A stretch of DNA of 62,151 nt from the IMG/VR virus record IMGVR_UViG_3300048831_000054, positions 1 to 62,151 of that record. One strand, given 5' to 3'. A program made the translations under genes and the position numbers. Below the pieces are notes generated by a model. The model did no database searches, was not told where the DNA came from, and worked only from the letters and a program-made list of their open reading frames with translations. Source of the stretch: a virus (lineage: Duplodnaviria > Caudoviricetes). Shown piece by piece: positions 13,281 through 45,772 of this stretch (its first letter is position 1; each line of letters opens with the position of its first letter).

Positions 13281-14825
13281 CTAGACCACCATGAAAGGCA
13301 TAGGTTCATCGCCGAACGTGTCCACCATGTCGGCGTCAGGTTCAACTGCCTCGTACACCAGCTGTCGCGCCGCCTCGTCGTAGGTCGACAGGCGGTTGAG
13401 CACCTTCATGACGACCAGCAACGCGGAGATGGCGTCGTCGGTGGCGCCGAGCTTTGCCTGGTACGTACCGTTGGCCGCGATGAAGTTCTTCAGCTCATAG
13501 ATGATGGTCTCGCTGTTGAGCTTGATCCCACCAGAGATCTTCTCGACCAGGTTCTTGAGTTGCATGCAGGCGACCAGCTTCGACTTTCCGGTGGTGTAGA
13601 CACCGAGCCGGCCAGGCGTCTCGTTGTACAGCTCGACGCCGTCGAGGTAGATGCCACCCTCAGGCGTCTCATCGTTCTGGATCATGGCGACGATCGCCTC
13701 ACCGACGCCGTTCCGCTCAAATGACCACATGACGTCGGCGCGCTGGCCCTTCTCATCTGGCTCGCGCAGGTGCTTCAGCAGCCACTTGAGCTTGGAGTAG
13801 ATGAGCGGGATGTTCACCGTGTTCAGCCTCAGCTCCGCCACCTGCACCAGCGCCGGGAACTCCAGCACCTGGATCGCAGTGAAGTCATTGCCGTTGCCTG
13901 TGGCCGGGTCCATCCCAACGAGGTAGGTCTTGTTCCCACCGATCTTGTCAGTCCAGAACTTGAACCCCATGTTCTCAGAGACCGGCACCTTGGGCGTCAG
14001 GTACACCAGCTTGATGCTGTCGATCAGCATGGCGTCGGAGGACAGGAACTCACACAGCACCTCCTGCCTGAACTTGCGCTCGCCTAGCTGGCCGCGCATC
14101 TCCTTCAGGTACTCCTCACCTCGCTCTGGGTGGCGGTCCCATGGGTAGTACAGCGGCTTGAAGCTGTTCTGCTCAGCATTGGCGGCGCGCCAGAGCTGCG
14201 CGAACAGCTCAGTGTCGCCATTCGGCGTGGAGCTGATGATGGCTGAACCGCCAGTCGACAGCGTCGGGGCCAGCGACGCCCACATGTTCTCTTGAATGCG
14301 CGGGTTGATGAACGCCAGCTCATCGAGGTACAGCTTGGAGATTGAGAGACCACGGCCCGTCTTCTCAGTCGTCGCCTCTGACTTGATGCGAGAGCCATTG
14401 TCAAACTCGATGTTGTGCTTGTTGTAGTACTTGCAGCCTGCCTTCAGCCAGTGCGGCATCTCCTCGTAGGCGAAGCGGATGCGGTCCATGATCTCCATGG
14501 CGTGGCCGTTGTTCTTCGAGGCGATGAGGATGGTCTGGTCATCATTGAACATCGCGTACCACAGCAGGTACATCGAGACCGTCTGCGTCTTGCCCATCTG
14601 GCGCGACAGGAGGGCGATCAGCCAGCGCTCCTGCTGCAGGTGCCGCACGAGCTCCTCTTGGTAGTCGTAGAGGTCAAAGAGGATCTTGCCGCGCGTCGGG
14701 TGCTGCAGGTAGACGTAGTTCTTGATGAAGTGCACCGGGTCGCGACCGCACCGGCGCAGCTCCTGTACGTTCGCAGGAGTGAACTCAGTCTCAGTGTGCG
14801 GGCGCTTGATGAATGGGTTTGGCAT
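13281..14825 (-). CDS. gp17: Terminase large subunit
   Basis: LYDYQ, SRQMGKT, YLDELAF, SSTPNG, FRQEVLCEF, GMDPATG, DDAISA. Confidence 0.95.
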   Translation of the reverse strand: MPNPFIKRPHTETEFTPANVQELRRCGRDPVHFIKNYVYLQHPTRGKILFDLYDYQEELVRHLQQERWLIALLSRQMGKTQTVSMYLLWYAMFNDDQTILIASKNNGHAMEIMDRIRFAYEEMPHWLKAGCKYYNKHNIEFDNGSRIKSEATTEKTGRGLSISKLYLDELAFINPRIQENMWASLAPTLSTGGSAIISSTPNGDTELFAQLWRAANAEQNSFKPLYYPWDRHPERGEEYLKEMRGQLGERKFRQEVLCEFLSSDAMLIDSIKLVYLTPKVPVSENMGFKFWTDKIGGNKTYLVGMDPATGNGNDFTAIQVLEFPALVQVAELRLNTVNIPLIYSKLKWLLKHLREPDEKGQRADVMWSFERNGVGEAIVAMIQNDETPEGGIYLDGVELYNETPGRLGVYTTGKSKLVACMQLKNLVEKISGGIKLNSETIIYELKNFIAANGTYQAKLGATDDAISALLVVMKVLNRLSTYDEAARQLVYEAVEPDADMVDTFGDEPMPFMVV

Positions 14826-15406
14826 TACTTGAAGATGAATTCCTTGATGGCCTTGACGGTGGCCTCGTCCTGCACCGCCTCAAAGTGGTTGGCGTACACG
14901 TCAACCTTCTTCTTGGCCAGTGACTTGCGCTGGGACTCCACCGTCACCACGCCGTCGTTGTCGCCAGAGATGAACGGCAGCGCGCCAGAGACGCTAATCA
15001 CTGACAGGAACGGTTGCTTTGGCTTGACCGTGGTGACCTCCCTGATGATCTTGCTGTGCGGTGACAGGTCCCTCAGGACATGGTAGCCGCCGTAGAACCA
15101 CTTCAGCGTCGAGGCCACGTGGCTGCCGCCGAACGGGGTGCCGATCGTGGCGATGCCGTTGATCTTCAGCCCAGGGGTCGCCCTCACGGCGAGCAGGTGG
15201 GCGATGATCCCGCCCAGGCTGTGGCCAACTATCCAGGTCGGCTCGCTGTCCGTGAGCTCCTCCAGCGCGGTGTGAAAGGAGTTCTCAATGTACTCACCGC
15301 TGTTGTACTCGATGAACTGCGCCTTGTGCTTGGGCAGCTGCGTCTTGATGAAGTTGAAGATCTTCGCTGAGCAGTTCAGACCGTGAATGTAGGTGATCTT
15401 TTCCAT
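14825..15406 (-). CDS. Alpha/beta hydrolase (lipase/esterase)
   Basis: IHG, GHSLGG nucleophile elbow, TPFGGS, NDGVV, NH. Confidence 0.85.
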   Translation of the reverse strand: MEKITYIHGLNCSAKIFNFIKTQLPKHKAQFIEYNSGEYIENSFHTALEELTDSEPTWIVGHSLGGIIAHLLAVRATPGLKINGIATIGTPFGGSHVASTLKWFYGGYHVLRDLSPHSKIIREVTTVKPKQPFLSVISVSGALPFISGDNDGVVTVESQRKSLAKKKVDVYANHFEAVQDEATVKAIKEFIFK

Positions 15407-15665: not shown

Positions 15666-16010
15666 TCAGCCCTGCTCAGCCGCCCAGACTGCCTTCAGCT
15701 CGTCGCCAAATTCTCTCTCCATGTAGTCGCCGATCCAGGCAGATGGGTCACCTGTACGCGCCTTCATTGTGCCGTACGGCATCTCACTGTGCAGCTCATC
15801 ATAGAGAAAGTCCTCTACCTTGTCATCTGTGGCATTGTCAGCCAGCCAGGCGGCGATGCGCTTGACCATGTCAGCGTCCCCGTCAAGCTTGAAGTGATCT
15901 GCAATTGCATCCTCAAGAGCGGCACGGGCATCTCGCGCTGCATCACCGGCCTTGTCGAGTGGGTCTGGAGACGACTCACGGATGGACAGAAGTTCTCGAA
16001 TTAGGTTCAT
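15666..16010 (-). CDS. Putative internal head protein
   Basis: N-terminus MNLIRELLSIRE/S; contains EMPYGTMKARTGDP..WI. Confidence 0.7.
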   Translation of the reverse strand: MNLIRELLSIRESSPDPLDKAGDAARDARAALEDAIADHFKLDGDADMVKRIAAWLADNATDDKVEDFLYDELHSEMPYGTMKARTGDPSAWIGDYMEREFGDELKAVWAAEQG

Positions 16011-16023
16011 TGCTTCCTCTCAG

Positions 16024-16338
16024 TTATTCACCGACCTTAGCACGGTGCACCTCGCGGTCGAGGTTGGGTTTTGTGACAAATTGCTGGTACATCAGCGCGT
16101 AGGCCTGACGGTCAGTGATGTCACGGCCATGCAACTTCTTGAACATGTTGATCACCCGCTCGGCGGCGTCACCTGGGCGTGACCAGCGCGGCTGAATCAA
16201 CCACGCGGCGGCCTGCACGTACTCGTCATCAGTAAAGGTGGCGTCGTACTCGTTGCGCATCGCCTTGGCCACCTTCCTCGTGATGAGCGGGAAGTTGACC
16301 GCCTCGGTCAGCGCCAGCAGCTCTCGAATGATGCTCAT
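16024..16338 (-). CDS. Putative internal head protein
   Basis: N-terminus MSIIRELLALTE/A. Confidence 0.7.
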   Translation of the reverse strand: MSIIRELLALTEAVNFPLITRKVAKAMRNEYDATFTDDEYVQAAAWLIQPRWSRPGDAAERVINMFKKLHGRDITDRQAYALMYQQFVTKPNLDREVHRAKVGE

Positions 16339-18395
16339 TCGCTGAGGTCCTCGAACTCCACCTCAAGGTAGCCATCGAAGTTCAGCTTGTCTCGCAGGTC
16401 ATCACGAAACTTCTCAAGGTTGAAGCCCTTCTTCGGGTAGAACGCCACGGTCCAGAGCGTTGAGCCGCCGCTGTAGCCCTGGTGCTCAATGTCAATGCCA
16501 AGGTCCTTGACTGCCTTCACCAGCCGGTCACGCAGGCCCTGGCCGGCTGTCACGACGACACCTGGCACCTTCATCTTGGGCCAAGGCTTGTTCTCATACT
16601 TCTTGACTGGCTTCTTTTTCTTGGTCTTGTCCTCGGCACTCATGTCATCCAACCACTTGTCAAGTCCCACCTTGCGGCCGCTTGAGAACCGCACCTCGTC
16701 TGCCTCTTTTACTGGCCACCTGAATGTCAGCTTACCAATGTAGGCCAGGCCTACCTGGTTCGCGCCCAGGAAGCGAGGAGTGTTGAACTCCACGTGAACG
16801 TCGTGACCGGAGAACTTTCGTGCGATCTTCCACACTTGATTCTGATCTAGGTTCGCTGACCGCGCCTTGCTGAAGATGATGTTGACGCTGAAGGTGTCTT
16901 TCTTCTTTCCCCACGGCGCGATGATGACAGAGTCGGCCTTTAGCTCTCGGCGCAGGGCCTTCTCAAGGTCGGGGATGAAGTTCGTCTTGAGCGGGGCCGC
17001 AGCCTCCTGCACTGATTCCTGGTGCAGGTAATCACGGTATGGAGCTGCCCAGTACTTGAACTGCGCCACAGATGATTGGCGGTTGGCTGTCTTCGTGAGG
17101 TGTAGTGCGTGGTCCTTCGCCTCCTGCTCGCTACTGAACTTCAGCAGCTTGCCACCCTGGCGCACGGGAGCGGTGCGATTGCCAGTGACGCCACCTGAGA
17201 CGTTGGCCATGATGATGAACGTCTCGTCCGCTTCCTTCACGTTCTTGGGTGCCTTGTAAGGCTCAACCCAGTAGTTCATGAAGTCATAACCTAGCTTCTT
17301 TCGTTTCGCGTACGGTATGTTGTAGGCGTCCTTCGAAAGTTCCCGGGCGCGTGCCTCGGCCGCTGCCTTCGTTTGGTAGAGCCAGGGCTTGCTGGTGTCG
17401 ATCTTGAACTTCTGGTTGAACACCGGCTTGTATTCCTCTGGTTCTGTGAACTTGCCCATGATGTGCTTTCGTGACTTGATGACGTACTTGCGTCCCTCAT
17501 CAATTTCACGTCGGTCATGGATTACCAGGTCCTCAAGGTGCATGAGCTCGTCAAGCTCCTTGGTCGTCAGCTTGCGCTCCTTCTGCAGGGCGCGCAGCTC
17601 GTACATGCGGCGGCGCCACTTGTCAGTAGTAGCATCTTCCTTTAGCTTGAGCTGCCCTGCCAGCTTCGCGACCTTGAGGTCAAACAGCTTCGCGAGCTGC
17701 TGCACGTACTTCTCGTGCATCTCCTCATCAACGTTAAGAAACAGGTCAAAGACCGCGAATGAAGAAGGAAGCTGAGAAACGTACTTGGCTGGCACGCGGT
17801 CAGGGTACTGCCGCTTGAGGCGCTCGATTACCTCGTACGCGGCTTTGACTGCTGCGTCGCGGATCAGTGACACCTGCTCATCAGAGAAGCCAGTGCGCTT
17901 CAACTGTTCAACGGCAACCTTTGACGGCAAGAAGCGGCGCTTGTCACGGCTGATCATTAGGTCACTGAACCACTGATTCAGCTTGTTCCCAAGGCCTGGA
18001 CCGTACTTCTGGCCACGCACGATCTTCTTGGCAAGCTCCGCATCTTCCTTAATGCGACCATTCTGCAGTGACAACAGATAGTCCTCATCGCTGGCGGAGC
18101 AACCATACTCCTCTATGAAGTCATCAACATCGCCGACGGACATCTCAGATGGGTGCATGCCATCTGACCAGCGCATGAACTTCTGCAGCAGCGCCTTCTT
18201 GTCCGTCTGGCGCTGTTTGCCTTCAGTGACTTGCTTTCCGGCCTTGCGGTCATACGTGCCTACGCACTTGTCGCCCTTCATGGCGACGGTGCAGTCCATC
18301 TCCGCCTTCTCAAACTTGACGTCCTTGCCATGCTCGGCCCGGATGATCTTCATCCAGTCGGTGATGGTCGACTCTAGGATCTCACGGAATTTCAT
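16335..18395 (-). CDS. Putative internal head polyprotein
   Basis: MKFREILE/S leader plus about 7 internal (V/I/L)xE-(G/D/A) sites separating small basic domains. Confidence 0.7.
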   Translation of the reverse strand: MKFREILESTITDWMKIIRAEHGKDVKFEKAEMDCTVAMKGDKCVGTYDRKAGKQVTEGKQRQTDKKALLQKFMRWSDGMHPSEMSVGDVDDFIEEYGCSASDEDYLLSLQNGRIKEDAELAKKIVRGQKYGPGLGNKLNQWFSDLMISRDKRRFLPSKVAVEQLKRTGFSDEQVSLIRDAAVKAAYEVIERLKRQYPDRVPAKYVSQLPSSFAVFDLFLNVDEEMHEKYVQQLAKLFDLKVAKLAGQLKLKEDATTDKWRRRMYELRALQKERKLTTKELDELMHLEDLVIHDRREIDEGRKYVIKSRKHIMGKFTEPEEYKPVFNQKFKIDTSKPWLYQTKAAAEARARELSKDAYNIPYAKRKKLGYDFMNYWVEPYKAPKNVKEADETFIIMANVSGGVTGNRTAPVRQGGKLLKFSSEQEAKDHALHLTKTANRQSSVAQFKYWAAPYRDYLHQESVQEAAAPLKTNFIPDLEKALRRELKADSVIIAPWGKKKDTFSVNIIFSKARSANLDQNQVWKIARKFSGHDVHVEFNTPRFLGANQVGLAYIGKLTFRWPVKEADEVRFSSGRKVGLDKWLDDMSAEDKTKKKKPVKKYENKPWPKMKVPGVVVTAGQGLRDRLVKAVKDLGIDIEHQGYSGGSTLWTVAFYPKKGFNLEKFRDDLRDKLNFDGYLEVEFEDLSE

Positions 18396-18935
18396 TTAGA
18401 TCCCCGCTGACAGGTATTCCATTGATGGGAGCTCAAGGATCTTATCTGCGGCCTTGAGTACCTTCGTCGCCTTCTTCCAGTCATCTTTCGTCTGCAGCAT
18501 CAGGGTTCCCTTCTCAAAGTAGGCGTCAACGCCGGCGTCCTTGAGAACTGCCAGCACCTTGCGCTCGTAGCCCTCAGTCAAGGCCCCTTCCTCGATGGCA
18601 GACCCACGCGCGTGGAACTTTGCGCTGTGAGTCAGGTAGTCACGCAGCTCATCAAGAAGATCTTCAAGAGTTCCCCTCTCTTTGTTCTCGGTTTGAGAAG
18701 AGAAGCCCCAGTCACCGTCCTTTGTCTGGTAAACGTGGATCCTCTCATACCCAGGCTGTCCACGCTTTGCCTTGTAGACCACCCGTACGATCCACTCCTC
18801 ACTGGAGTCGTCGTCCTCAGCCGCCATAGGTTCATAGATCTTGACTCCCTTCAGGCCCTTCAGCGCCTTCATGATCTTCACATTTGTGCCGCCGAGCGAG
18901 ATGCGGCTGGCTTCAAAGAGTTCGTTGACCTTCAT
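18396..18935 (-). CDS. Putative internal head protein (two modules)
   Basis: MKVNELFE/A; internal AIEEGALTE/G; TAAATA at 18967-18972 upstream. Confidence 0.7.
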   Translation of the reverse strand: MKVNELFEASRISLGGTNVKIMKALKGLKGVKIYEPMAAEDDDSSEEWIVRVVYKAKRGQPGYERIHVYQTKDGDWGFSSQTENKERGTLEDLLDELRDYLTHSAKFHARGSAIEEGALTEGYERKVLAVLKDAGVDAYFEKGTLMLQTKDDWKKATKVLKAADKILELPSMEYLSAGI

Positions 18936-18972
18936 TGTTTTCCCTCAGGTTAATGAGCTGCGTTGCTATTTA

Positions 18973-19596
18973 TCACTCGCCACGAACGAGCTTCATAAAG
19001 TGCTGATAGCTCTGGTACTGCTCCAGCAGGTATTCGTGGTTGACGAGGACGACCTCATCGCACAGGAGCATGATCTCCGCGCCGCCCGCAAGCGCGCGGT
19101 CCATGTCAGTCGTCTTCCAGGTGACTTTGTCCAGAAAGTAGGCGGTGATCTCAGGCAGGTCCTCAACCGGCTTGGTGCGCGCCCTGTCACGGATCCACGT
19201 CGACAGCGTCAGCGAGTCGCCAAGCGGCCGGTCCTTCAGCATCGGGTTGTTTGAATAGCCGCCGGCCCAGAAGTACTTGAACTTGCCGACAGGGAAGACG
19301 CAGTGGACCGTGCCGTACGACCTAGCCTGCAGGAAGTGGCTCGTGCAGAAGACGGCCTCAGACCGGAGCCGGGCGCCAAACTTCCTCTCGAACCAGTCAT
19401 CCATTGCCTTGTGCACGTGCGGCTCAGTGTCAACCGGCCTGCGCTGCTTGTTGACTTTCTCGACTCGTACCGAGCTGCCTTTGCCTGTACCGCGCAGCAG
19501 CGGGTCCTCAACATTCATGGCGACGAAGGGCTGGCAACGCTCGGCAACCAGCTTGACGGCGTCAGCTGGTTTGGAAATGAAGTCACGGAAGCGCAT
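18973..19596 (-). CDS. Putative ADP-ribosyltransferase-fold internal protein (paralog A)
   Basis: MRFRDFI; LLRG...FCTS..QARSYG...AEIML. Confidence 0.6.
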   Translation of the reverse strand: MRFRDFISKPADAVKLVAERCQPFVAMNVEDPLLRGTGKGSSVRVEKVNKQRRPVDTEPHVHKAMDDWFERKFGARLRSEAVFCTSHFLQARSYGTVHCVFPVGKFKYFWAGGYSNNPMLKDRPLGDSLTLSTWIRDRARTKPVEDLPEITAYFLDKVTWKTTDMDRALAGGAEIMLLCDEVVLVNHEYLLEQYQSYQHFMKLVRGE

Positions 19597-20144
19597 CAGT
19601 CGGCCCTGTCAGCGTAGGTCCAGAAGTGCATCTGTCCCTTGTTGTTGGTCGTCCACCGGTAGGCCTTGCGCCCGTCCACAGTGATCTCCTCAACGTTAGC
19701 AGGCAGCGTGCCACGGTTCTTCACAGCGAATGGAGCATGGTGGTGCTTGACACCATTGATGACGCGCAGTCCCTCTTCATCCTTGTTCTTGGCCGCCATG
19801 GTGCCAGCGGCAATACCACCGGCCACGAGGCCAGCGATCGCCAGGTCCTTCCAGCCCTCCTCAAGCTGGAACTCATCCTCGTTGTCATGGTAGACGCGGC
19901 AGGTGAGGGTGTTCAGGCGCTGCATCGGGTGCAGGCGCAGGCGCTGCTGCACCTTCTGCGTCAGGTCTGGCTGGAAGCCCTCCTCACGTGGCACGTCCTG
20001 ACAGTCGGCGTGGATGTCAATGCGGTTGTCACCCTTGTCGATGACGTGGTGCACCTTGCACGCGACCAGCTCCTCCTCAGCGATGTGGTGGATCAGGTCC
20101 TCAAACTTCTCGACGGTGCTCTCAAGGAACTGCTTGAACCTCAT
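19596..20144 (-). CDS. Putative internal head protein (two modules)
   Basis: MRFKQFLE/S; internal LEE/GWKDLAIAGLVAGGIAAG hydrophobic segment. Confidence 0.7.
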   Translation of the reverse strand: MRFKQFLESTVEKFEDLIHHIAEEELVACKVHHVIDKGDNRIDIHADCQDVPREEGFQPDLTQKVQQRLRLHPMQRLNTLTCRVYHDNEDEFQLEEGWKDLAIAGLVAGGIAAGTMAAKNKDEEGLRVINGVKHHHAPFAVKNRGTLPANVEEITVDGRKAYRWTTNNKGQMHFWTYADRAD

Positions 20145-20773
20145 TTTCCAAACTCCTTGGCAATTAGCGGCAGCACCTGTTCATTGAAGAAGGGGCTGTC
20201 GTGTTGAAACGCGTAGTAGCTGCTGCAGGACACCATGATCTCATGCCTGGACTTCAGGGCCTCAGGCAGGTCCTTATCTGACCATGAAAAGCCGGTGAGG
20301 TCATTCTGAAAGTGGATCTCGTTGGTTTCCCAGTCCTCGTCCCAGTCATCATCAAGTAGCGGTTCAACGAGGTCACCATAGACGTCCTCAATCTCCTCTG
20401 ACCACACGAACTTGAACTCCCCGATAGGAAACACCACGTGCGTGGGACCAAAGGTGCGAGCAAATATGTCACTGCCAGTGACGAACAGTCCATCGCGCGC
20501 GTTCCACCCAAACCTTCGCTTGAACATCTCGTTCATCGCGTTGTGCACCAGCAGCGGGGTGTCCTTTGGCTTTCGGTACTTGGTGTGCTCAATGATGGCC
20601 CAGCCAGTCTTGGCGGTGCGAGTCGGTGGCATGCCACGAAATGGCACCTTGTAGCTGACGTCCTGCTCCGGGTCCTTGCTCAGTTCTAGCTGCGACAGGC
20701 AGGGGTGGCAGTCCTGGATGAACCGCTTCTCGTCAAACTTGGTCGCCTCAGTGATGAACTGCCTGAACCTCAT
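20141..20773 (-). CDS. Putative ADP-ribosyltransferase-fold internal protein (paralog B)
   Basis: MRFRQFITE/A; PFRG...FVTG..FARTFG...HEIMV. Confidence 0.6.
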   Translation of the reverse strand: MRFRQFITEATKFDEKRFIQDCHPCLSQLELSKDPEQDVSYKVPFRGMPPTRTAKTGWAIIEHTKYRKPKDTPLLVHNAMNEMFKRRFGWNARDGLFVTGSDIFARTFGPTHVVFPIGEFKFVWSEEIEDVYGDLVEPLLDDDWDEDWETNEIHFQNDLTGFSWSDKDLPEALKSRHEIMVSCSSYYAFQHDSPFFNEQVLPLIAKEFGK

Positions 20774-21411
20774 GTCACGTACCCCTCAGCCTTCAGCGTG
20801 GTGAGAAACTCTGGCGAGAAGTCCGTCGCCACTTCAATCAGGTAGTACTTGCCGTCCATGGACTTCAGCATCACCTCATTGCCGGAGGTGGCCGCCCGCT
20901 TGAGGTCAGTGTTGAACTTCCAGTCTATGGTGCTGCCCACCTGCTTGATGAGCTCCTCAATGGCCGCGTCCGTACGGTCCTCGAAGGAGAGGCCTGGCTG
21001 CTTGTGGCGCAGGTCGTTCTTCACGTTGTCGAAGTTGTGCACGAGGTCAACGACGTCCTCTGACCAGAGGTACTTGAATTCACCTACTGGAAAGATGAGG
21101 TACACGACACCGAACTCCTTGATCATCGAGTAGTCAGAGCTCACGAAGATGGCGTCGGACCGCGCCGCCCAGTTGAACTTCTGCCTGAAGATCGCGTCAA
21201 CGGCGTAGTGGACCTCGCGCTTGCTGTCACGCGGGCGGGTGCGCACCACGTGGCTCTTCATTCCCCAGTCATCTGGCCCATTGCTGGAGGCGTGCTTCAG
21301 CAGGTGGTGCGTTGACAGCCCCTTGATCTCGCTTAGGAACGGAGCGCAGTCCTTGAAGAACTTGTCGAAGTTGAACGAGGTGCCCTCAGCCAGGAAGTCC
21401 TTGAACCTCAT
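20770..21411 (-). CDS. Putative ADP-ribosyltransferase-fold internal protein (paralog C)
   Basis: MRFKDFLAE/G; LLKH...FVSS...EFG...NEVML. Confidence 0.55.
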   Translation of the reverse strand: MRFKDFLAEGTSFNFDKFFKDCAPFLSEIKGLSTHHLLKHASSNGPDDWGMKSHVVRTRPRDSKREVHYAVDAIFRQKFNWAARSDAIFVSSDYSMIKEFGVVYLIFPVGEFKYLWSEDVVDLVHNFDNVKNDLRHKQPGLSFEDRTDAAIEELIKQVGSTIDWKFNTDLKRAATSGNEVMLKSMDGKYYLIEVATDFSPEFLTTLKAEGYVT

Positions 21412-22139
21412 GACTTGTACCAGCCCTCTGTCTTCTTGCGGAGCTGCTCCTCGGGCATGATGGTCGGCACTAGGTACTTGCTGCCTTGCTTCCGCAGCTT
21501 GTCAAGCACCTGCCTACCGACCGGGTTGCTCACTGGCGCCGCGTAGAAGCCCTGCACCTTGCGGTAGGCGTCGAGCAGGAGGTCGTCTGTCAGCTCGTTG
21601 TCGTCGTTCTTCAGCACCTTGAAGAAGTCAAACTTGCCCTGAAAGTAGCGCTGGTCGGCCGCCGTCTGCTCGTGCACCTGCCGGATGAAGTCCTCATCGA
21701 TCACGCGGCCCACCTTCTGCGCGCGCTCATTCGCGCGGCGGATGGAGGTCTCAAGTGACGTGTCAACGAAGATCATGCCGACGTCGTAGCCCAGCGACTC
21801 GAGGATGCCGGTGCGGTGCAGGATGTTGGAGACGTCGTTGGACGTACCGTCAATGAAGAGCGGCAGCATGCCATTGAGGTTCGAGTACAGCGCGCCGCTC
21901 GTCATGCGCTGCGCCGCCTCCTTGAAGAAGGGCCAGTTCTCTGACGTCACGGCCCGCTTGAACTTCCTGGCGAGAAACTCGGAGGCGCGGTCAGTGTTGA
22001 CGACCCGCGGCTGCACGTCGCCAGCCAGGCGAGAGACCGTGTAGCTCTTGCCGGAGCCGGGCTCACCTGTCACGAAGATGGCCTTGAACAGGCCAGCGTC
22101 ATTGATCGACTCGTCTAGAAACTGTCTGAATGTTTTCAT
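21408..22139 (-). CDS. Zeta-toxin/AAA_33-like P-loop kinase with capsid-targeting-like leader
   Basis: MKTFRQFLDE/S; GEPGSGKS, FIDGT, LGYDVGMIFVDTSLETSIRRANER. Confidence 0.78.
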   Translation of the reverse strand: MKTFRQFLDESINDAGLFKAIFVTGEPGSGKSYTVSRLAGDVQPRVVNTDRASEFLARKFKRAVTSENWPFFKEAAQRMTSGALYSNLNGMLPLFIDGTSNDVSNILHRTGILESLGYDVGMIFVDTSLETSIRRANERAQKVGRVIDEDFIRQVHEQTAADQRYFQGKFDFFKVLKNDDNELTDDLLLDAYRKVQGFYAAPVSNPVGRQVLDKLRKQGSKYLVPTIMPEEQLRKKTEGWYKS

Positions 22140-23131
22140 TTGTCAAACACGAATCCCAAGTTACCCTTCAGCCGGCTTCCTACCTTTATACCAGGTTCCT
22201 GCAAGATCTTGTAAAACGTGTCTACTGAGATGCCAACGCACTGTCCTGAGAACCAGGCCTCACCCATTAACCTGAGCTCACCGGGCAGCTGCACTGAAAG
22301 TCGAAGCACTTTCGGATCCATATAGAAGTCAGCAATGACATTCAGACGGCGAGAGCGGTTATCTCGCAGCAGCGCCAGCAACTTACTGCCAGTCGGATTG
22401 ATTGACTGATTGACAGCGCGTCTAGCCAGCTTCATATCCATCTTGGTCTCAGCGTTGCGAGATAAGATGTTTCTCATGCTGCCACGGGTGCTTGCCTTGT
22501 TGTAGGCATCATCGACGTCATCTATGTTTCCAAGATCAAAGTTGTCAATCATTGAGTAAATGATTGCCTCTGGAGACTTTTCCGCCAGCGCAGCATTGAT
22601 GCGCGCTGCGCTGATGTACTTACTCTGCTTGTCTGGCTTTATGCCTAAATCGTACAGCGCGTCTCTTAGGAAACTATCAAAGTACTCAATATCCATGCTG
22701 CGCGTCAAGTTTTTATTGATGAAGTCATCTTCTCTTGAGACTGCCACTGGCGTTCCGTCAAAAGGCAGCATCACATACAAGTTTTGCCAGCTGTGTGAAA
22801 ATTGCCTCGCGTAGTGCATGTCTGATGAGCAGATGAATGACGCAGATCGTTTTGGGACTCCCTTGAGGTTGCTTGAGATGTCCATTGCCAGTTGGTAGAG
22901 GTTGCTGCTGTCTTTTGAAGTGCGTAGCGCGGCTGTGCTATCAAACACCATGACGCTTGATCCCGGTGACTGCTTGAACCCGCGAAACAGCACATTGCTG
23001 CTGGCAACATCACTTAGCGACTTGCGACAATGCTCATTTAGCAGCTCAATGCCACGCTTGACATTGACCTTTGACACCTTCCACTTTGAGGTGATCACTG
23101 TGGCCTCTGCTAGAAACTGCCTGAAGTTCAT
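22136..23131 (-). CDS. Putative ADP-ribosyltransferase-fold internal protein (paralog D)
   Basis: MNFRQFLAE/A; LFRG...PKRSASFICSS..YARQF...GEAWF. Confidence 0.6.
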   Translation of the reverse strand: MNFRQFLAEATVITSKWKVSKVNVKRGIELLNEHCRKSLSDVASSNVLFRGFKQSPGSSVMVFDSTAALRTSKDSSNLYQLAMDISSNLKGVPKRSASFICSSDMHYARQFSHSWQNLYVMLPFDGTPVAVSREDDFINKNLTRSMDIEYFDSFLRDALYDLGIKPDKQSKYISAARINAALAEKSPEAIIYSMIDNFDLGNIDDVDDAYNKASTRGSMRNILSRNAETKMDMKLARRAVNQSINPTGSKLLALLRDNRSRRLNVIADFYMDPKVLRLSVQLPGELRLMGEAWFSGQCVGISVDTFYKILQEPGIKVGSRLKGNLGFVFDK

Positions 23132-23586
23132 TTCGACTTGTCCACCTGCGCGTCATCGACCTGGATCATTCGCAGCAGCTCATTGCGGTCGGCCACGATC
23201 AGGTTGTTGGTTGTCTTGTTGCCGCTGCCGAAGGGCACAAACGTGCTTGCGCGCTTGCGCTCGATCTTGATCTTGGCACGGCTGTTCGCGGCGTTCAACG
23301 CGATGTTGAGGTAGTTGGCGGCGACCTCGGCGTTGCGGGCGGCGTAGCGCGGCTCGACCATCTCGGTCAGCGCAGTCTGGTTCTCAAAGGCGCCCATGGC
23401 AGCGTCGTAGACGTCATCGATCTTCTTCTCGATGATGATGTCCTCCTCGTCCTTCTGAGTGGCCTCTGCGACCGTGGCGCTCACCTCAGCCGTCATCGCG
23501 TACTGCTGCTCAATGTCAATGCTTGAGCTGCCTGACTCGATGTTCAGGACGTCCTCGAGCGGGTGCTCAATCTTGATCTTGCTCAT
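23128..23586 (-). CDS. Terminase small subunit-like protein
   Basis: Helical core PRYAARNAEVAANYL and C-terminal TTNNLIVADRNELL, resembling gp16-family proteins. Confidence 0.6.
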   Translation of the reverse strand: MSKIKIEHPLEDVLNIESGSSSIDIEQQYAMTAEVSATVAEATQKDEEDIIIEKKIDDVYDAAMGAFENQTALTEMVEPRYAARNAEVAANYLNIALNAANSRAKIKIERKRASTFVPFGSGNKTTNNLIVADRNELLRMIQVDDAQVDKSK

Positions 23587-24038
23587 GCTCTCTTCCTTGG
23601 CCTTCTTGGCTGCTTGGGCGCCTGCTTGAACAGGCTCGCCTCTGTGATGACTCGAAACTTCATGCCGTGCTGGCGGGCAAACAGGTCAGCCGCCTTCCAC
23701 TTGGCGTCATTGATGATCAGTGACAGCTTGTCATAGTCTGTCATGTTGGCGCGCTGCACTGATTCCTTCAGCGGCTTGATCTCAATGATCTCCTTCTGCA
23801 CGGCGCCGGCCTTGTCACGGTACACCACGATGAAGTCAGGGTAGTAGTAGTGCACCCTCGCGTCGGTCGGCTTCAGGTATGGGATCTTCAGCTCCTCGCT
23901 GCCCCACTTCAGCACCGCCTCAGACGCGTCGAAGAACTTCATGGCGCGCACCTCCCACGCCGACCTGAAGAAGATCTTCGTGGGGTCTCCCAGGTACTTG
24001 TCTGGGAACTTAGGTAGGAACCGTCCGCGGGCTGCCAT
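23583..24038 (-). CDS. gp4: Head completion nuclease (gp4/TnsA-like)
   Basis: KYLGD..FRSAWE, WGSEE..IPY, YYPDF, IEIKP, N.AKW.AA, ITE. Confidence 0.9.
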   Translation of the reverse strand: MAARGRFLPKFPDKYLGDPTKIFFRSAWEVRAMKFFDASEAVLKWGSEELKIPYLKPTDARVHYYYPDFIVVYRDKAGAVQKEIIEIKPLKESVQRANMTDYDKLSLIINDAKWKAADLFARQHGMKFRVITEASLFKQAPKQPRRPRKRA

Positions 24039-30693: not shown

Positions 30694-32577
30694 TTAGATC
30701 TGCTTCTTTCCTAGCCCGACGCGGGTGCTCGAGTCTAGGATCTTGCGTACGGACGGCTTCGTCGATGAGTATTGGCCCCGCCGGTCGGTCTCGACGTATA
30801 GCCAGCGGTTCTTGTAGGCCGAGTAGCGGTACAGGCGAGGGGCGATCTCAAGGTTCTGCGGGTAGTACAGGCGGAAGTAGTCGCCATCATTGACGGTGGT
30901 GACGTCAGGCAGGCGGCTGCCCTCGCCGTACGGCTCGCCGTTAGGTGGCAGGCCGTCCTCAATGTAGTTGCCCTGCGTGCCGTCAAATGGCGCAGCTGGT
31001 GGGTTGCCGTGCTCATTGACCGGCAGCTGCACTCGCGGCAGCACGGCGCCGATGGTAGACGTCTGGTCGTCTGAGCCGACCTCAGGCACCGCCTTCGCCG
31101 CCTGCTTGGCGATCTCCTCGCTGATGGTCAGCGGCGTCGTGTCGATCTGGTCACCCACGCCGTCGGCGAGGATGCTGTCAGTCGTGAGGTACTTCTGCGT
31201 GTCAATGGTGCCGAAGATGTCGCGCGTCTCCTGCGACGGTAGCGCCTGCTGCGCGCTGAAGCGGTATAGCGTTGGGCGCCACGCCGTGGCGTAGCCCTCT
31301 GCCGCCCAGCCAGTGTCGGTCACCTCAAGGAACTTCCTGACGGGCAGGAGGTTCTGATCGTACTGCAGGTCTGGGCGCACCTCGATGATGTCACCAGTGA
31401 TGATTGGCCGGCCAAGCACCGCCACCATCGTGTTGAACGAGCAGGTGAAGGAGTACTGGTCCAGGATCTGCAGGCCAAACTTGCTGAGGTCAGAGATCGA
31501 GTCAATAGGTGAGTACTGGCACTTCAGCTGCAGCGAGACCGGCGCGTAGTCACGGTCACGGTTCTCATTGAAGAACAGGTCCTGGATGTCGTTGATGTTC
31601 GACGGCGCGCTGTCGAGCACGTCAAGGGCCATCACCTCCCAGCTGCCAGTGCCGGTGAAGAGCGTCGGTGAGATGCGAACGGCCTTGGCGAGCAGCGGTG
31701 ACTGGAACTTCAGGAAGGTGGAGTTGATCGTCTGCTGCAGGTTGAATACGCCCTGGCGCCGCCACACGTAGTTCAGCGGCACCGTGAAGAGGTCACCCGC
31801 GACGAAGGGGACCGTTCCGTTGGTGATCGTGAATTCAACGAGCGGGGTTGAGAACTTCACGCCGACCGTGGCGACGCCGTAGGCCTGCAGCGGGCGGCCG
31901 GGGATGGTGGCGGCGACGAGGAACGTGGTAGGCGACGTGGCCATCACGCTGACGACTGCCTGAGTCGCGCTGAGGCCGAGCTGGTCGATGGTCAGCGTGC
32001 CGTCACCAGCGCCGCTGAACTGGATGGTGCCGACCTCAGTCTCCCCGTCGGCCGTGTCGATCCTGACCTGGCGCGCGTACGCGTTGACGTTGTTTGCCTG
32101 AGTGATGGCGATGCCGGCGATCTCCTGCCAGTTGGGCCGAGGCGCCTCGTTCTGCGGGTACTGCGTGTCGTCGAAGTACTTGAAGCCGAAGTCAAGGGCG
32201 ATGAAGCTGCCAAGCACACCAGGCCCAGTACCGGCGGACGCCCAGCCAGCGCCGCCCAGCTCATCAAGCCCACGACCAGGGAGGAAGGGGCTCGAGAACA
32301 GCGTGCCGTTGGCCAGCACCGAGCCCTGCCCCTGCTCGTGGACGCCGAGCAGTTTGTAGACGTTGATCGGCGCGCCGTTGATGTTGAGCACCTCAGCAAC
32401 GTAGGATTCCTGGTTGGCGAGCTCCTGGTTGGAGCACTCGTCGTCCTTCCCTGAGATCTGCCACTCACCGACGCACGTCTCAACGGGCGTGTATGGTGGC
32501 GGTAGGACTGGAGGCGGGTTGTTCGGGTCGTTGAGACTTCCGGCACCGGCGTCGCAGGCTAGAGTTGGTAGCGGCAT
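30694..32577 (-). CDS. Neck protein, gp14-like, extended
   Basis: INVYKLLG, IQDLFFNENRDRDY, DLSKFGL, LGRPIITGDIIE, LEVTD; position between gp13 and gp15. Confidence 0.75.
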   Translation of the reverse strand: MPLPTLACDAGAGSLNDPNNPPPVLPPPYTPVETCVGEWQISGKDDECSNQELANQESYVAEVLNINGAPINVYKLLGVHEQGQGSVLANGTLFSSPFLPGRGLDELGGAGWASAGTGPGVLGSFIALDFGFKYFDDTQYPQNEAPRPNWQEIAGIAITQANNVNAYARQVRIDTADGETEVGTIQFSGAGDGTLTIDQLGLSATQAVVSVMATSPTTFLVAATIPGRPLQAYGVATVGVKFSTPLVEFTITNGTVPFVAGDLFTVPLNYVWRRQGVFNLQQTINSTFLKFQSPLLAKAVRISPTLFTGTGSWEVMALDVLDSAPSNINDIQDLFFNENRDRDYAPVSLQLKCQYSPIDSISDLSKFGLQILDQYSFTCSFNTMVAVLGRPIITGDIIEVRPDLQYDQNLLPVRKFLEVTDTGWAAEGYATAWRPTLYRFSAQQALPSQETRDIFGTIDTQKYLTTDSILADGVGDQIDTTPLTISEEIAKQAAKAVPEVGSDDQTSTIGAVLPRVQLPVNEHGNPPAAPFDGTQGNYIEDGLPPNGEPYGEGSRLPDVTTVNDGDYFRLYYPQNLEIAPRLYRYSAYKNRWLYVETDRRGQYSSTKPSVRKILDSSTRVGLGKKQI

Positions 32578-41581: not shown

Positions 41582-42802
41582 TTAGACGAACGTCAGGTTG
41601 GCAACCGAGATGCGGCCGTAGTAGTCCGCCGAGTTGCCCAGCGACGTGGAGGTCGACGTGAACGTCGCCTTGCCGTAGCGGGTCATCAGCGAAACGTGTG
41701 GGTTGAACGTGTTAGGATCAACCACGACACCCGACGACATCAGTGGGATGTATGGGCAGTAGAAGTAGCCGGCGTCCATCTCACCCGAGCCACCCTTGAA
41801 GCCGAGGAGGACGTCCTCAGTGCCAGTCTGGTGGTAGATGTAGGTGTAGACCTTGATCGAGCCGTTCAGCGTGCCGACCAGCTTGGTGTTGTTCGGACCA
41901 TCGAACGAGCCGGCGACGGCTGGCGCGAAGACCGACTTGGAAGCGCTCTGCAGGACAGAGACCACCAGTGGGGAGACAACGATCCAGTTGGCTGGACCAC
42001 GACGCGTCTTGCGAGCGATCTCGTTCGCGACCTTGTTGACCAGGACGCCCAGGACTGCGTGGCGGTCGCCAACGTAGTTCGGAACACCCGTGAACGTGCC
42101 GTTCATGTCGAAAGCTTCGACAGTGCCGGCCAGCGTGGTCAGGTCAGCGATGATCTCGTTGTCGATTTCACCAACGATCGCTGCGGACAGCGAGGCGGTG
42201 ATTTCGGCTTCGAGATCGAGACCGTGCGATGCCTTGAGGTCCTGCATGGCTTCTGGCGTCCAGCGGGCCTGCAGCTTGCGCGAGCCAGCCGTGACCGTCT
42301 GCTTCAGGACTTCCAGCGTCATGTGCTTACCACCGAAACCTTCGTAGTCGGCAGTGTCAGCGGCCAGGCCGTCAGACGTGGCAGCCGTCAGGGCTGGCGG
42401 GTAGCCAGTCGTGCCGACGTCAGCTGACGAGTAGAAGCGACGCATCTTGCCAGCGACATTGCTGAACACCTCATCACCGGCGACGATGTCGGTGCCCGTT
42501 GGGGCATCGGCAGCCTCGGTGAACAGGAAGCGCAGCGAGTACACCAGGCCGACCGGGCCGGACATCGGCTGAACGCCGACGAGCTCGGTGGCGATGGTGC
42601 CCGGGATGATACGGCGGATCATCGGGATGACGATCTTCTGGAAGTTGCCGATGGCAGCGGCGTTGGTGCCGAGAGCCGAGGCAGTTTCCGCCAGGTAGGC
42701 CTTCTGGTTCTCCAGAACGGGAGCGACGATGGCCTTCTTGCGCTCTGACAGACCTTCCAGGAGGGTCTCCTTGGTTTCGGTCCAGTTTTCAAATAGTTCC
42801 AT
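41582..42802 (-). CDS. gp23: Major capsid protein
   Basis: LENQ, GVQPMSGPVGL, SRKLQARWT.EAMQDL..HGLD.E, FYCPYIPL, TRYG; true start MELFENW at 42802. Confidence 0.96.
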   Translation of the reverse strand: MELFENWTETKETLLEGLSERKKAIVAPVLENQKAYLAETASALGTNAAAIGNFQKIVIPMIRRIIPGTIATELVGVQPMSGPVGLVYSLRFLFTEAADAPTGTDIVAGDEVFSNVAGKMRRFYSSADVGTTGYPPALTAATSDGLAADTADYEGFGGKHMTLEVLKQTVTAGSRKLQARWTPEAMQDLKASHGLDLEAEITASLSAAIVGEIDNEIIADLTTLAGTVEAFDMNGTFTGVPNYVGDRHAVLGVLVNKVANEIARKTRRGPANWIVVSPLVVSVLQSASKSVFAPAVAGSFDGPNNTKLVGTLNGSIKVYTYIYHQTGTEDVLLGFKGGSGEMDAGYFYCPYIPLMSSGVVVDPNTFNPHVSLMTRYGKATFTSTSTSLGNSADYYGRISVANLTFV

Positions 42803-43920: not shown

Positions 43921-44148
43921 TTACTCTGTCGTCGTGTCGTCGGTACCTGTCGGTTCGCCGTCGGTTAGGTCAGCGTCAGCAGCGGTCGTTACCTCCGGCT
44001 CCACGTCAGCCTCAGGTGCCAGACCGGCAAGGTCCCGCATCTTTGACGTCAGGTAGTTGTGAAGGTCCATCGTTGCCTCCTCGGGCTTGTCATTGATGAG
44101 CCCGTTCAGCATGCTTCTTAGAAGTTCTCGCTTGTCTTGGTCGGCCAT
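43921..44148 (-). CDS. Small acidic prohead core protein (gp67-like)
   Basis: Acidic 75 aa, upstream of scaffold; TATAAATA at 44198-44205. Confidence 0.6.
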   Translation of the reverse strand: MADQDKRELLRSMLNGLINDKPEEATMDLHNYLTSKMRDLAGLAPEADVEPEVTTAADADLTDGEPTGTDDTTTE

Positions 44149-44231: not shown

Positions 44232-44429
44232 TCAACGATCTTGAACTGCTGCGGCCTTGATGTGACTGTTCAAAAACGTCTTCCAGTCCCTGAACGGCAT
44301 GGACTTCTGCGTTGCCCAGGCCCAGAGCAGATTCTCACGCTCAGCCTCCGTCTTCTGAAGAAAGTCAGCAACTGAAATTCCCTCGCAGAGGTTGTAGGCG
44401 GTCAGTTCCTTCAGGCGCGCGAGGTCCAT
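44232..44429 (-). CDS. Small putative head protein
   Basis: MDLARLKELT..LCE/G; located in the head operon. Confidence 0.6.
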   Translation of the reverse strand: MDLARLKELTAYNLCEGISVADFLQKTEAERENLLWAWATQKSMPFRDWKTFLNSHIKAAAVQDR

Positions 44430-44431
44430 TG

Positions 44432-45160: not shown

Positions 45161-45772
45161 TTACTTCCTCGTGATGGAATCGATGAATTTCTTGATCTCG
45201 GCGGCGAAGAACTTCTGCGCCTTCGAGTCGTGCAGCACGGCCTCAGCCAGCGTCTGCACCTTCGGTGCCTCAAGCGCCTCGCGCACGACATCTGGGTAGC
45301 AACCCGGGCCGGATGGCTGGGCGACGATGTCAACCGTCACGAACTGGAAGTCCTCGACCATGCCCTCGTTGGTGACGTTGCCGGTGCCGCGTGAGGAGAC
45401 ACCCAGCTTCATGCCACCCTCAATGAGCTGGCGAACGATCATGCCGCTCGGGGTGTTCAGGACCTTGCACTTGCCGACGGCGTTGTCACCGTCCATGTAC
45501 GCCTCGGTGATGATGTGCGAGACGTTCTTGAGGTCGATGGACAGGTTGTCGGGGTGGTTGAGCTCACCGGCGACGTACGTGCCTTCCTTGGCGCGCTCAT
45601 TGATGACACCCACCGCCTTCTCAATCTCTGAGCGAGGGTACACGCGCTGGTTGAGGTTCTTCTGCTCGGCGGCCATCATGCGGCCGGCCAGGTAGAGGTT
45701 CTTCGCAGCGTCGCGCGACTCGATCAGCTGGGCCTGCGCAGGCGTGAAGTGCTCGATGAGAACTTGCTTCAT
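45161..45772 (-). CDS. gp21: Prohead protease
   Basis: N.N.RVYP, GELNHP, VSHII, TPSG, GVSSRGTG, DIVAQPS. Confidence 0.95.
   Translation of the reverse strand: MKQVLIEHFTPAQAQLIESRDAAKNLYLAGRMMAAEQKNLNQRVYPRSEIEKAVGVINERAKEGTYVAGELNHPDNLSIDLKNVSHIITEAYMDGDNAVGKCKVLNTPSGMIVRQLIEGGMKLGVSSRGTGNVTNEGMVEDFQFVTVDIVAQPSGPGCYPDVVREALEAPKVQTLAEAVLHDSKAQKFFAAEIKKFIDSITRK

Follow-up and report, generated by a model that had tools for sequence, protein, structure and literature searches.

The DNA analysed here, referred to as the window, is a stretch of 62,151 nucleotides from an uncultured T4-like jumbo phage, representing a fragment that is ∼19% complete. Its genes include those for a prohead protease of the gp21 family, a portal protein, a scaffold protein and a capsid protein of the gp23 family. 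The protease and T4 gp21 share 32% identity, and their GELNHP and GVSSRG stretches align. The predicted maturation site of the capsid protein (YLAE38/T) aligns with the FLTE/A site of T4 gp23, indicating that the phage uses maturation sites of the x-x-Glu type, here one of the L-x-E kind. The scaffold gene (42831–43742) adjoins the capsid gene and has no Pfam match; its N-terminus is nearly identical to that of the gene at the same position in RsoM2USA, and its counterpart at locus L004 matches T4_CASP. A preliminary description of this DNA had placed protease-type sites in three head proteins and each was found: the capsid protein has YLAE/T, the scaffold protein VLTE/Q and the protease LIE/S.

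The gene studied here is a 686-codon open reading frame, which exists as originally described (Table 1). It abuts the stop codon of the upstream gene and shares 4 nt with the downstream gene. Its product starts with a short leader and is then divided by Glu-containing sites into eight modules, six of which have a pI of 7.7–10.1.

Table 1. Features of the 686-residue protein and of the head genes discussed in the text. A slash marks the predicted position of cleavage.
Feature	Residues	Coordinates	Strand	Mass (kDa)	Remarks
Target ORF	686 aa	16335-18395	−		ATG start
Leader	1–8	18372..18395	−		MKFREILE/S; T4 CTS-like; ends in I-L-E site
Module 1	9–58	18222..18371	−	5.7	Ends VTE58/G
Module 2	59–117	18045..18221	−	6.8	Acidic; ends IKE117/D
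Module 3	118–253	17637..18044	−	15.6	Basic; ends LKE253/D
Module 4	254–300	17496..17636	−	5.9	Charged; ends IDE300/G
Module 5	301–388	17232..17495	−	10.6	Basic; ends VKE388/A
Module 6	389–464	17004..17231	−	8.5	Core VSGGVTGxR...YW; ends VQE464/A
Module 7	465–564	16704..17003	−	11.3	Basic; ends VKE564/A
Module 8	565–686	16338..16703	−	14	Ends ...FEDLSE at stop codon
Ten consecutive leader-bearing genes, including the target		15666..23131	−		Leaders at N-termini; between tail-tube region and terminase
Prohead protease, gp21 family (Peptidase_S77)		45161..45772	−		Pfam PF03420, E = 1.8e-25
Major capsid protein, gp23 family		41582..42802	−		Pfam PF07068, E = 1.8e-94

The leader resembles the T4 capsid-targeting sequence (CTS). 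By pattern match it is a propeptide of the CTS type ending in hydrophobic-x-Glu and, at 8 residues, it is slightly shorter than those of T4. At least 12 genes in the window encode a CTS-like leader. Several (MKTFRQFLDE/S, MNFRQFLAE/A, MRFKQFLE/S and the target's own MKFREILE/S) resemble the MKTYQEFIAE/A leader of T4 IPII and IPIII, and another, MSIIRELLALTE/A, is comparable to the T4 Alt leader MELITELFDE. The positions reported to be important in the experimentally defined T4 CTS are an aromatic residue at 4, a hydrophobic residue at 7–8 and Glu at 10 (PMC9026906), and the pattern of the window leaders agrees with T4 at these positions. The leader genes sit in structural blocks, beside genes for the protease, scaffold, capsid, tail tube and terminase, and the arrangement of the ten-gene cluster recurs in L002, L009 and RsoM2USA.

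All of the sites named in the preliminary description are present in the 686-residue protein, as are the two copies of VKEADE, which do not result from a DNA duplication. Searching for DNA repeats at the joints gave none of note. The original list omitted five further [LIV]xE sequences (E96, E191, E224, E283 and E686), where the following residue is Y, R, E or L or, in the case of E686, the protein ends. The total number of [LIV]xE sequences is not enriched (13 compared to 9.9 ± 2.7 in shuffled sequences; p = 0.17), and neither is [LI]xE (7 compared to 6.4 expected). Where [LIV]xE is followed by A, G, S, D or T there are 8 occurrences compared to 2.9 expected (p about 0.007, for a pattern set post hoc after inspecting the data), and all eight fall at module boundaries. 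Flank hydropathy did not separate joint from interior sites in this protein. The T4 cleavage consensus is L/I-x-E, and half of the inner sites here have Val at P3 (V58, V388, V464 and V564). Cleavage by gp21-type proteases has been described simply as C-terminal to Glu (PMC5694885, PMC10052503, PMC9026906).

An exhaustive profile search gave 88 matches. Two of these, P0002 and P0003, are full-length homologs. Each of the others covers a single module (∼115–256, 389–455 or 601–686), either alone or at a different position, in proteins of 63–1125 residues. The preliminary description had suggested comparing homologs to see whether modules come and go exactly at the sites, and this is what both full-length homologs display: losses and gains of whole modules at the sites are their sole difference from the target. 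In P0002, module 2 is missing through a deletion lying exactly between E58 and D118, and an extra module of ∼75 residues, flanked by LNE/D and LME/A, lies directly before module 7. In P0003, module 3 is missing, with the deletion falling exactly at both its joints. Module 5 is missing from both, the gap lying exactly between E300 and A389. The leader and module 7 are kept in both, as are module 1 (with the joint VKE/D in P0002 and VTE/D in P0003) and module 4 (ending MRE/S in P0002 and VDE/E in P0003), the latter being probably helical as judged from its sequence. Module 2 is retained in P0003. For modules 1, 2, 4, 5 and 7 the comparison is one of presence or absence among these three proteins; modules 3, 6 and 8 are also found as separate proteins, which agrees with a working definition of viral polyproteins by which the units of one ORF exist separately as well. 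The exhaustive profile search gave no relatives of module 1 beyond P0002 and P0003, and another profile search gave no support for module 1 as a member of a widespread ‘W’ module.

Module 3 is the most widespread, with 43 domain matches in the collected proteins. It can occupy any position and occurs twice in P0004. Stand-alone versions with their own leader are found in head-gene clusters; at loci L003–L008, a gene for a leader plus module 3 alone has the protease gene on one side and the scaffold/capsid genes on the other. From the 43 matches we hand-picked 31 leader-type proteins. In all 31 the residue immediately before module 3 is Glu, with P3 being L, I, V or F in 28 and T in three leaders of stand-alone module 3, and this joint is kept although the upstream sequences differ. 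The end of the module is mostly [IL](V)KE/. Module 6 gave 25 domain matches, including stand-alone proteins of 63–91 residues, and a copy with 74% identity lies C-terminally in P0094, a different leader protein and the sole find in a search for shorter forms of the target. Module 8 consists of a Lys-rich linker (565–600) and a core domain (601–686), the latter with 27 domain matches. Its stand-alone copies are 95–101 residues long with a leader directly in front (e.g. MKLQEIVMVE/SKIP...), and in most matches the domain ends with [LIM]xE followed by 0–3 residues. Modules 5 and 6 had been proposed to be paralogs; a BLAST match with E = 0.14 over 7 residues and a match of the module 6 family profile to module 5 with E = 0.0067 over 19 residues (in an eight-sequence database) only hint at such a relationship.

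The association of sites with module boundaries extends to the wider family. Among 38 related proteins of at least 250 residues each, 46% of 211 homology breakpoints were at most 3 residues from [LIVF]xE, compared to 14% for random positions. With the boundaries of module 3 removed, 38% of the remaining 155 were near [LIVF]xE. For 85 of the 211 there was no [LIVFMT]xE within 4 residues. The P1′ residue, which played no part in site selection, was S, A, D or G at 102 of 145 joints, compared to 95 of 262 interior sites (Fisher p = 4e-11). Cutting the 38 proteins in silico at [LIVF]xE/[SADG] produced 214 fragments of at least 30 residues; 169 match another protein, 98 of them end to end (a ratio of 0.58), whereas random cuts gave 12.9 ± 3.3 end-to-end matches. 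Seven control motifs, among them ones with E replaced by D or K, with the order reversed or with a non-small P1′, gave ratios of 0.06–0.28. When fragments were grouped into families, the 38 proteins yielded 226 fragments, with 31 shared module families, arranged in differing orders, and 105 singletons. An unrelated family of leader proteins behaves alike: its forms of 645, 553 and 510 residues differ by indels whose start directly follows VVKE/ or AIKE/. The modules evolve as independent units. The joint motif is conserved and specific across the protein family, and we treat the joints as putative cleavage sites.

These data bear on whether the protein belongs to the virion at all. The N-terminal motif might instead provide a context for translation initiation or some other targeting, with Glu at the joints reflecting a Lys/Glu-rich composition. 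The link to the head is drawn from sequence and gene context, the related proteins contain 8% Glu and 11.5% Lys, and [LIV]xE as a whole is at the chance level in the target. We nevertheless regard this explanation as very improbable: control motifs built on the same compositional logic perform much worse than the joint motif, the leader genes lie inside structural gene blocks and the leader agrees with the T4 CTS at the positions reported to be important.

A stronger competitor, albeit one that we consider unlikely, is a head-packaged multidomain protein that loses its leader alone and persists as beads on a string. The joint motif would then be a linker ‘grammar’ or a by-product of recombination and would not be cut efficiently. 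The T4 precedent is in keeping with this, as cutting there is confined to the ends: internal proteins lose a propeptide of 10–19 residues, and Alt is trimmed at both its N- and its C-terminus (PMC9026906). An ESM Atlas model of the 686-residue protein (pTM 0.22, pLDDT 0.55) fits loosely linked domains and is silent on cutting, and the next module may partly explain the S or D after Glu, as a helix N-cap. In addition, inner sites such as IRE/A and VSE/A lie inside module 3 of some homologs; the motif alone is therefore insufficient. Against this alternative, a hydrophobic P3 (28 of 31) and Glu (31 of 31) precede module 3 whatever lies upstream, a small P1′ is far commoner at joints than at interior sites, and the joints have the same logo as the sites in the leaders and the capsid protein. 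Moreover, the motif is kept at the protein level across phages with a GC content of 0.43 to 0.60 which, together with the lack of DNA repeats at the joints, argues against a DNA recombination signal.

If the chain is cut, the pieces might be waste rather than cargo: the protein could be a prohead core or filler component, chopped to be cleared from the head ahead of DNA packaging or while it proceeds. Such clearance is what repeated sites are documented to serve (PMC5694885, PMC10052503, PMC9026906), stand-alone module 3 is located where T4 has small core genes, and the capsid of a jumbo-size genome needs a large core. However, a separate scaffold gene adjoins the capsid gene, and the pieces are conserved domains of 47–136 residues, mostly basic, rather than short peptides. 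The same modules also occur as single leader-plus-module genes, the format that internal proteins have in T4, and we infer that shuffling this extreme is seen more typically among conflict proteins than among scaffolds. A core or filler role appears improbable, less so than a protein foreign to the virion and more so than an uncut chain.

We searched widely for known relatives. The target, its modules and its relatives gave nothing above noise in Pfam, PHROGs, NCBIfam or PDB sequences, and no Pfam or NCBIfam family was found in the target or in nine relatives of 267–1125 residues. Neither the target protein nor its modules had a match in a collection of 50,697 phage records or in the closest cultured relative. 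Scans with the full-length alignment gave no relatives with genomic context among viral contigs and metagenomes, the same being true of P0019 against metagenomes and of module 8 against viral contigs. ESM Atlas returned no usable feature matches, with all structural rows at TM < 0.5. T4 Alt has nearly the same length (682 residues) and was considered as a homolog; it has no sequence similarity to the target. More generally, comparison with the phage collection, PHROGs, T4 Alt and PDB sequences showed no homology between the target and known internal proteins, Alt included. Literature searches, covering titles and the beginnings of abstracts of the papers listed, gave no description of leader-led polyproteins in T4-like phages.

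The explanation that we favour, with somewhat better than even confidence, is that the 686-residue protein serves as a cargo polyprotein in the phage head. The 8-residue leader would carry the whole chain into the prohead core, where the gp21-family protease, presumed to be the one encoded in the window, would cut after Glu at [L/I/V]-x-E followed by S, A, D or G. This would remove the leader and free about eight small, mostly basic modules of 5.7–15.6 kDa, which would stay alongside the DNA inside the head, as T4 internal proteins do, and would probably be ejected into the host. The polyprotein reading of the preliminary description is supported in part: modules are gained and lost at the sites, a pattern that generalises to the related-protein family, the leader is CTS-like and a gp21-family protease is encoded. 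With several modules behind one leader and a cutting motif at every joint, several small proteins are probably loaded into the head as one chain. We infer that the protein is targeted to the head, that its inner joints are cleaved, that the products stay in the head and are later ejected, and any function that they have in the host; that the modules are effectors is conjecture.

A broader proposal, which we advance tentatively and with rather less than even confidence, is that an uncultured, T4-like and probably jumbo clade keeps a combinatorial library of dozens of small orphan modules, loaded into heads as cleavable strings with [L/V/I]-x-E/[SADG] as a universal connector. If so, the connector would let modules move between leader-plus-module genes and polyproteins of up to ∼1100 residues, and one leader would deliver a changeable, equimolar set of injected proteins, which by analogy with T4 IPI may plausibly inhibit host defences.

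Cutting at the joints would mean that a tailed DNA phage naturally uses a polyprotein strategy, with release by the head maturation protease and addressing by a T4-type leader. It would explain how the heads of large phages can be stocked with many small proteins in fixed ratio, and would provide a simple sequence rule for spotting virion cargo in metagenomic phages. The more than 30 module families without known relatives would become candidates for early-acting, injected proteins. The joints would also offer a design rule for the delivery of multiple passenger proteins by T4-type capsids.

Cargo delivery as a polyprotein had been called unusual for a tailed phage, which is fair but not absolute, there being several precedents. 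We regard the system as a variant of the T4 internal-protein system. Like the target, T4 IPI, IPII, IPIII and Alt have a short N-terminal leader ending in hydrophobic-x-Glu and a protease of the gp21 family. In T4, as here, many unrelated proteins have the leader alone in common, the products are mostly basic (described as such in PMC9026906) and the gene set is hypervariable (PMC3012670, PMC9026906). The T4 internal proteins are described as single units cut at the leader alone, Alt also being cut near its C-terminus (PMC9026906), whereas here about eight modules follow a single leader, and every joint has a site.

That proteases of this type cut head proteins at several sites is itself established. 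The T4 core proteins gp22, gp67 and gp68 and the long propeptides of phiKZ, 201phi2-1 and SPN3US head proteins have several sites per chain, as predicted for the target, with homologous proteases cutting after Glu (PMC5694885, PMC10052503, PMC9026906). In those systems, as described, the repeated sites break a scaffold or propeptide into pieces that leave the head, whereas the pieces of the target are conserved domains that occur independently. The giant-phage motif is A/S/G-x-E, in contrast to L, V or I at P3 in the joints here, and searches of the phage collection and PHROGs gave no homology to these proteins or to the phiKZ-type inner-body protein families.

The ‘polyvalent proteins’ of Iyer, Burroughs, Anand, de Souza and Aravind (2017; PMC5512222) are virion-delivered multidomain proteins with predicted self-processing. 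They resemble the target in having many domains per polypeptide and extensive shuffling; 2–15 distinct domains in shuffled architectures is their defining range, and the target has ∼8 modules. Delivery with the DNA followed by proteolytic release has been proposed for them, with an explicit analogy to RNA-virus polyproteins (PMC5512222). Their domains are described as recognisable enzymatic or effector domains, thought to be cut apart by an embedded MPTase peptidase (PMC5512222). Pfam and NCBIfam searches of the target and nine relatives gave no such effector or enzymatic domains and no MPTase; for the target, cutting would fall to the prohead protease, a separate protein that would act on a defined motif at the joints.

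Finally, T4 packages engineered IPIII/CTS fusions (Hong & Black; Mullaney & Black, as cited in PMC9026906), in which, as proposed for the target, one leader brings what is fused behind it, there a foreign protein, into the head and is itself processed by the protease. Those fusions are artificial and have one passenger, whereas the gene family described here occurs naturally and combines multiple passengers with inner sites.

The 686-aa target open reading frame is squeezed tightly between its neighbour genes. The preliminary description had read it as a polyprotein cut by the prohead protease into about eight mini-proteins, and all eight sites that it named are present, as is VKEADE, which occurs two times. 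The motif [LIV]xE is found 13 times in the target compared to 9.9 ± 2.7 in shuffled sequences, and its count is therefore not enriched. The eight named sites are precisely those where a small residue (S, G, D or A) follows the glutamate; 2.9 such sites are expected by chance (p ~0.007, for a pattern defined post hoc). Five sites were omitted: E686, which closes the chain, and four with Y, R, E or L in the next position. The proposed paralogy of units 301-388 and 389-464 came down to a weak likeness. Six of the eight modules are basic.

Features of the window and their positions
Feature	Position	Strand	Match or remark
Large terminase	13281-14825	-	
Small alpha/beta hydrolase	14825-15406	-	lipase-like GHSLGG motif
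Leader-bearing genes	15666-23131, 32577-33485, 44232-45063	-	
Target	16335-18395	-	leader MKFREILE/S
Three leader-gene paralogs	18973-19596, 20141-20773, 20770-21411	-	phrog_11975/phrog_15932, unknown function
182-aa leader protein	19596-20144	-	
Leader-kinase fusion	21408-22139	-	leader MKTFRQFLDE/S; PF06414, E = 2e-11
TnsA-like endonuclease N-terminal domain	23583-24038	-	PF08722, E = 1.6e-19
gp23-family capsid protein	41582-42802	-	PF07068
Scaffold-like protein	42831-43742	-	
75-aa gene, acidic tail	43921-44148	-	
gp21-family protease	45161-45772	-	PF03420, E = 1.8e-25
Portal	45858-47519	-	PF07230
1012-aa ORF	47527-50565	-	no Pfam match

Among 5.8 billion clustered proteins, there were only two full-length relatives of the target, P0002 (606 aa) and P0003 (465 aa). 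A comparison of homologs had been suggested as a check, and its outcome was positive: in both, entire modules are gained or lost at the predicted joints relative to the target. P0002 lacks residues 59-117, where its sequence runs ...VKE/DAELAKK..., and residues 301-388 (...MRE/SFMVMG...), and has an additional module of ~75 aa flanked by LNE/D and LME/A. P0003 lacks residues 118-253 (...DLKE/DATTDKW...) and also 301-388. At every site common to the three proteins, the hydrophobic-x-Glu is kept.

When 1.84 billion representatives were searched exhaustively with a profile, 88 matches emerged, each of which, beyond P0002 and P0003, covers one module only. Module 3 (residues ~115-256) can stand anywhere in the chain, in proteins that range from 131 to 1125 aa, with two copies in P0004, a 1023-aa polyprotein. 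The core of module 8 (residues ~601-686) stands alone at 95-101 aa or is C-terminal in larger proteins, and module 6 (residues ~389-455) stands alone at 63-91 aa or is embedded within larger proteins. Shorter forms were also looked for, which yielded P0094 (267 aa): its C-terminal module shares 74% identity with module 6, and its leader and remaining modules differ from those of the target. No module matched a known family in Pfam, PHROGs, NCBIfam or PDB sequence searches.

The stand-alone proteins of the module-6 family (P0068-P0088, 63-91 aa) share the core VSGGVTGxR...A..A..L...F.YW, and have no leader and no Pfam or PHROG match. The N-terminal module (residues 9-95) of the 182-aa leader protein corresponds to residues 851-949 of P0004 (43% identity); modules are therefore exchanged between polyproteins and single leader genes. 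The 75-aa gene lies between protease and scaffold, and the N-terminal part of its product matches the start of P0041, in which a module-8 domain and a 'W' module follow. In another phage, a gene of the head module is thus joined to cargo modules.

In all 31 leader-type proteins picked from 43 module-3 domain hits, the residue preceding module 3 is glutamate. P3 is L, I, V or F in 28 of these and T in three, P1′ is S or D, and the upstream sequences are unrelated; the C-terminal end of the module is mostly [IL](V)KE/. These flanking motifs are missing in distant leaderless stand-alone copies and are therefore not part of the fold. In stand-alone module-8 proteins, a leader ending in [LIV]xE abuts the domain (e.g. 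MKLQEIVMVE/SKIP...), whose own end is ...DL(V)E plus 0-3 residues.

In the full set of 38 collected proteins (250 aa or longer), 46% of 211 homology breakpoints lay at most 3 residues from an [LIVF]xE site, compared to 14% for random positions; with module-3 boundaries excluded, the value was 38% of 155. For 85 of the 211 there was no such site within 4 residues. The joint logo (125 distinct contexts) gave P3 L58/V39/I13, P2 K37/A18 and P1′ S29/A24/D22/G18. P1′ was left free when the joint sites were selected, and was small in 102 of 145 joint sites versus 95 of 262 interior sites (p = 4e-11). In-silico cleavage of the 38 proteins at [LIVF]xE/[SADG] produced 214 fragments of 30 aa or more; 169 matched another protein, and 98 of these matches ran end to end, covering at least 85% on both sides (ratio 0.58). 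Random cuts gave 12.9 ± 3.3 end-to-end matches, and seven control motifs, which preserve the homologous-position effect, gave ratios of 0.06-0.28. The fragments clustered into 31 shared module families and 105 singletons, in clearly shuffled architectures (e.g. F3-F0-F1-.-F9 versus.-F0-F6-F15-F1-.-F9-F7). In an unrelated leader protein family from the fetched loci (645-, 553- and 510-aa forms), indels begin exactly after VVKE/ or AIKE/. The joint motif is maintained across phages of GC 0.43 to 0.60 and there are no DNA repeats at the joints of the target gene; selection therefore acts on the peptide, not the DNA. We conclude that the feature is real and non-trivial.

The main weaknesses of the cleaved-polyprotein reading are the inner copies of the motif held by some module-3 homologs and the valine at P3 of four of the target's seven inner sites. 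The S or D after the glutamate could also be partly explained as a helix N-cap. We regard an intact multidomain cargo, from which the leader alone is removed, as unlikely, and cleavage at several inner joints as fairly probable.

The window (62,151 bases, GC ~0.6) is a viral contig estimated at ~19% of the genome, and the phage is therefore probably of jumbo size. Its minus strand carries a T4-type head module with sheath and tail-tube-like protein genes. The nearest cultured relative by capsid protein is Ralstonia phage RsoM2USA (343.8 kb; 64.8% identity). The previously proposed capsid protein site, YLAE38/T, is present and aligns with T4 gp23 FLTE/A, which we take to be where T4 gp23 is cut in maturation, after Glu65. 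The T4 database record lists gp23 as cleaved by gp21. Immediately upstream of the portal gene is the 1012-aa ORF, with a long Ala/Gly-rich C-terminal part.

The T4 capsid-targeting sequence (CTS) is MKTYQEFIAE/A in IPII and IPIII, and the T4 Alt N-terminus is MELITELFDE. At least 12 genes in the window have CTS-like N-termini, namely those of the target and the kinase fusion, MNFRQFLAE/A, MRFRQFITE/A, MRFKDFLAE/G, MRFKQFLE/S, MKVNELFE/A, MRFRQFIE/S, MSIIRELLALTE/A, MNLIRELLSIRE/S, MSILKELLDGK and others, in two flavours (M[KR]F[RK]xF[LI]xE and MS[IL][IL]xELL). In a review (PMC9026906), positions 4 and 7 of the T4 CTS are described as important for targeting and 8 and 10 for processing; the 10-residue leaders of the window carry F, F, L/I and E there. 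Ten leader genes are consecutive in one block between the tail-tube region and terminase, and further ones sit between protease and scaffold; three paralogs excepted, they have the leader alone in common. We found no homology of the target to members of the T4 internal-protein system (phage collection, PHROGs, T4 Alt); with such leaders and neighbours, a protein without virion association is very improbable.

The block is syntenic in the fetched loci L002 and L009 (leader genes, alpha/beta hydrolase, terminase). A block of leader genes also adjoins the terminase in RsoM2USA, where the hydrolase gene is missing. The hydrolase gene of the window is directly upstream of the large terminase, a position that the gene keeps in L002 and L009. 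In L003-L008, one small gene between protease and scaffold/capsid genes encodes 'leader + module 3', approximately at the site of gp67 and gp68 in T4. The TnsA-like gene lies within the structural gene block, and L002, L004 and RsoM2USA_260 likewise have it beside the leader cluster. The kinase fusion carries a Zeta-toxin-family P-loop domain that passes the Pfam cut-off; an enzyme therefore also bears the leader, as T4 Alt does. The product of the fusion is a candidate head-packaged enzyme, with homologs bearing the same leader in L004 (2599-3315) and RsoM2USA_254. An array of ~ten paralogs of 186-210 aa, mostly with MKLxEI... or MRLTEI... N-termini, adjoins the leader-gene cluster beside the terminase in RsoM2USA (175363-182072; L015). 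This cultured relative therefore also carries leader-type genes; none of the target's modules was found in it.

We propose that the leader would carry the chain into the prohead core, as its pattern and gene context suggest. The gp21-family protease would cut after Glu at the leader and seven joints, where the comparative signal is strong. The modules (predicted sizes 5.7-15.6 kDa) would stay with the DNA and then be ejected, by analogy with T4 internal proteins. We give delivery into the host an even chance and hold an anti-defence or takeover role only tentatively; that the shuffling pattern fits conflict proteins is conjecture. In PMC5694885, PMC10052503 and PMC9026906, multi-site cutting by gp21-type proteases is documented in T4 core proteins and phiKZ/SPN3US propeptides, where it serves clearance. 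The target could likewise be core filler chopped for clearance; with modules that also exist as stand-alone proteins, this seems distinctly improbable.

In the portions of the literature covered, we found no description of leader-led, protease-jointed polyproteins in T4-like phages. The target is similar in logic to polyvalent proteins (PMC5512222), but their known domains and embedded peptidase are missing from it. Its proposed working is like that of the T4 CTS/internal-protein system, whereas its multi-passenger format is foreign to it.
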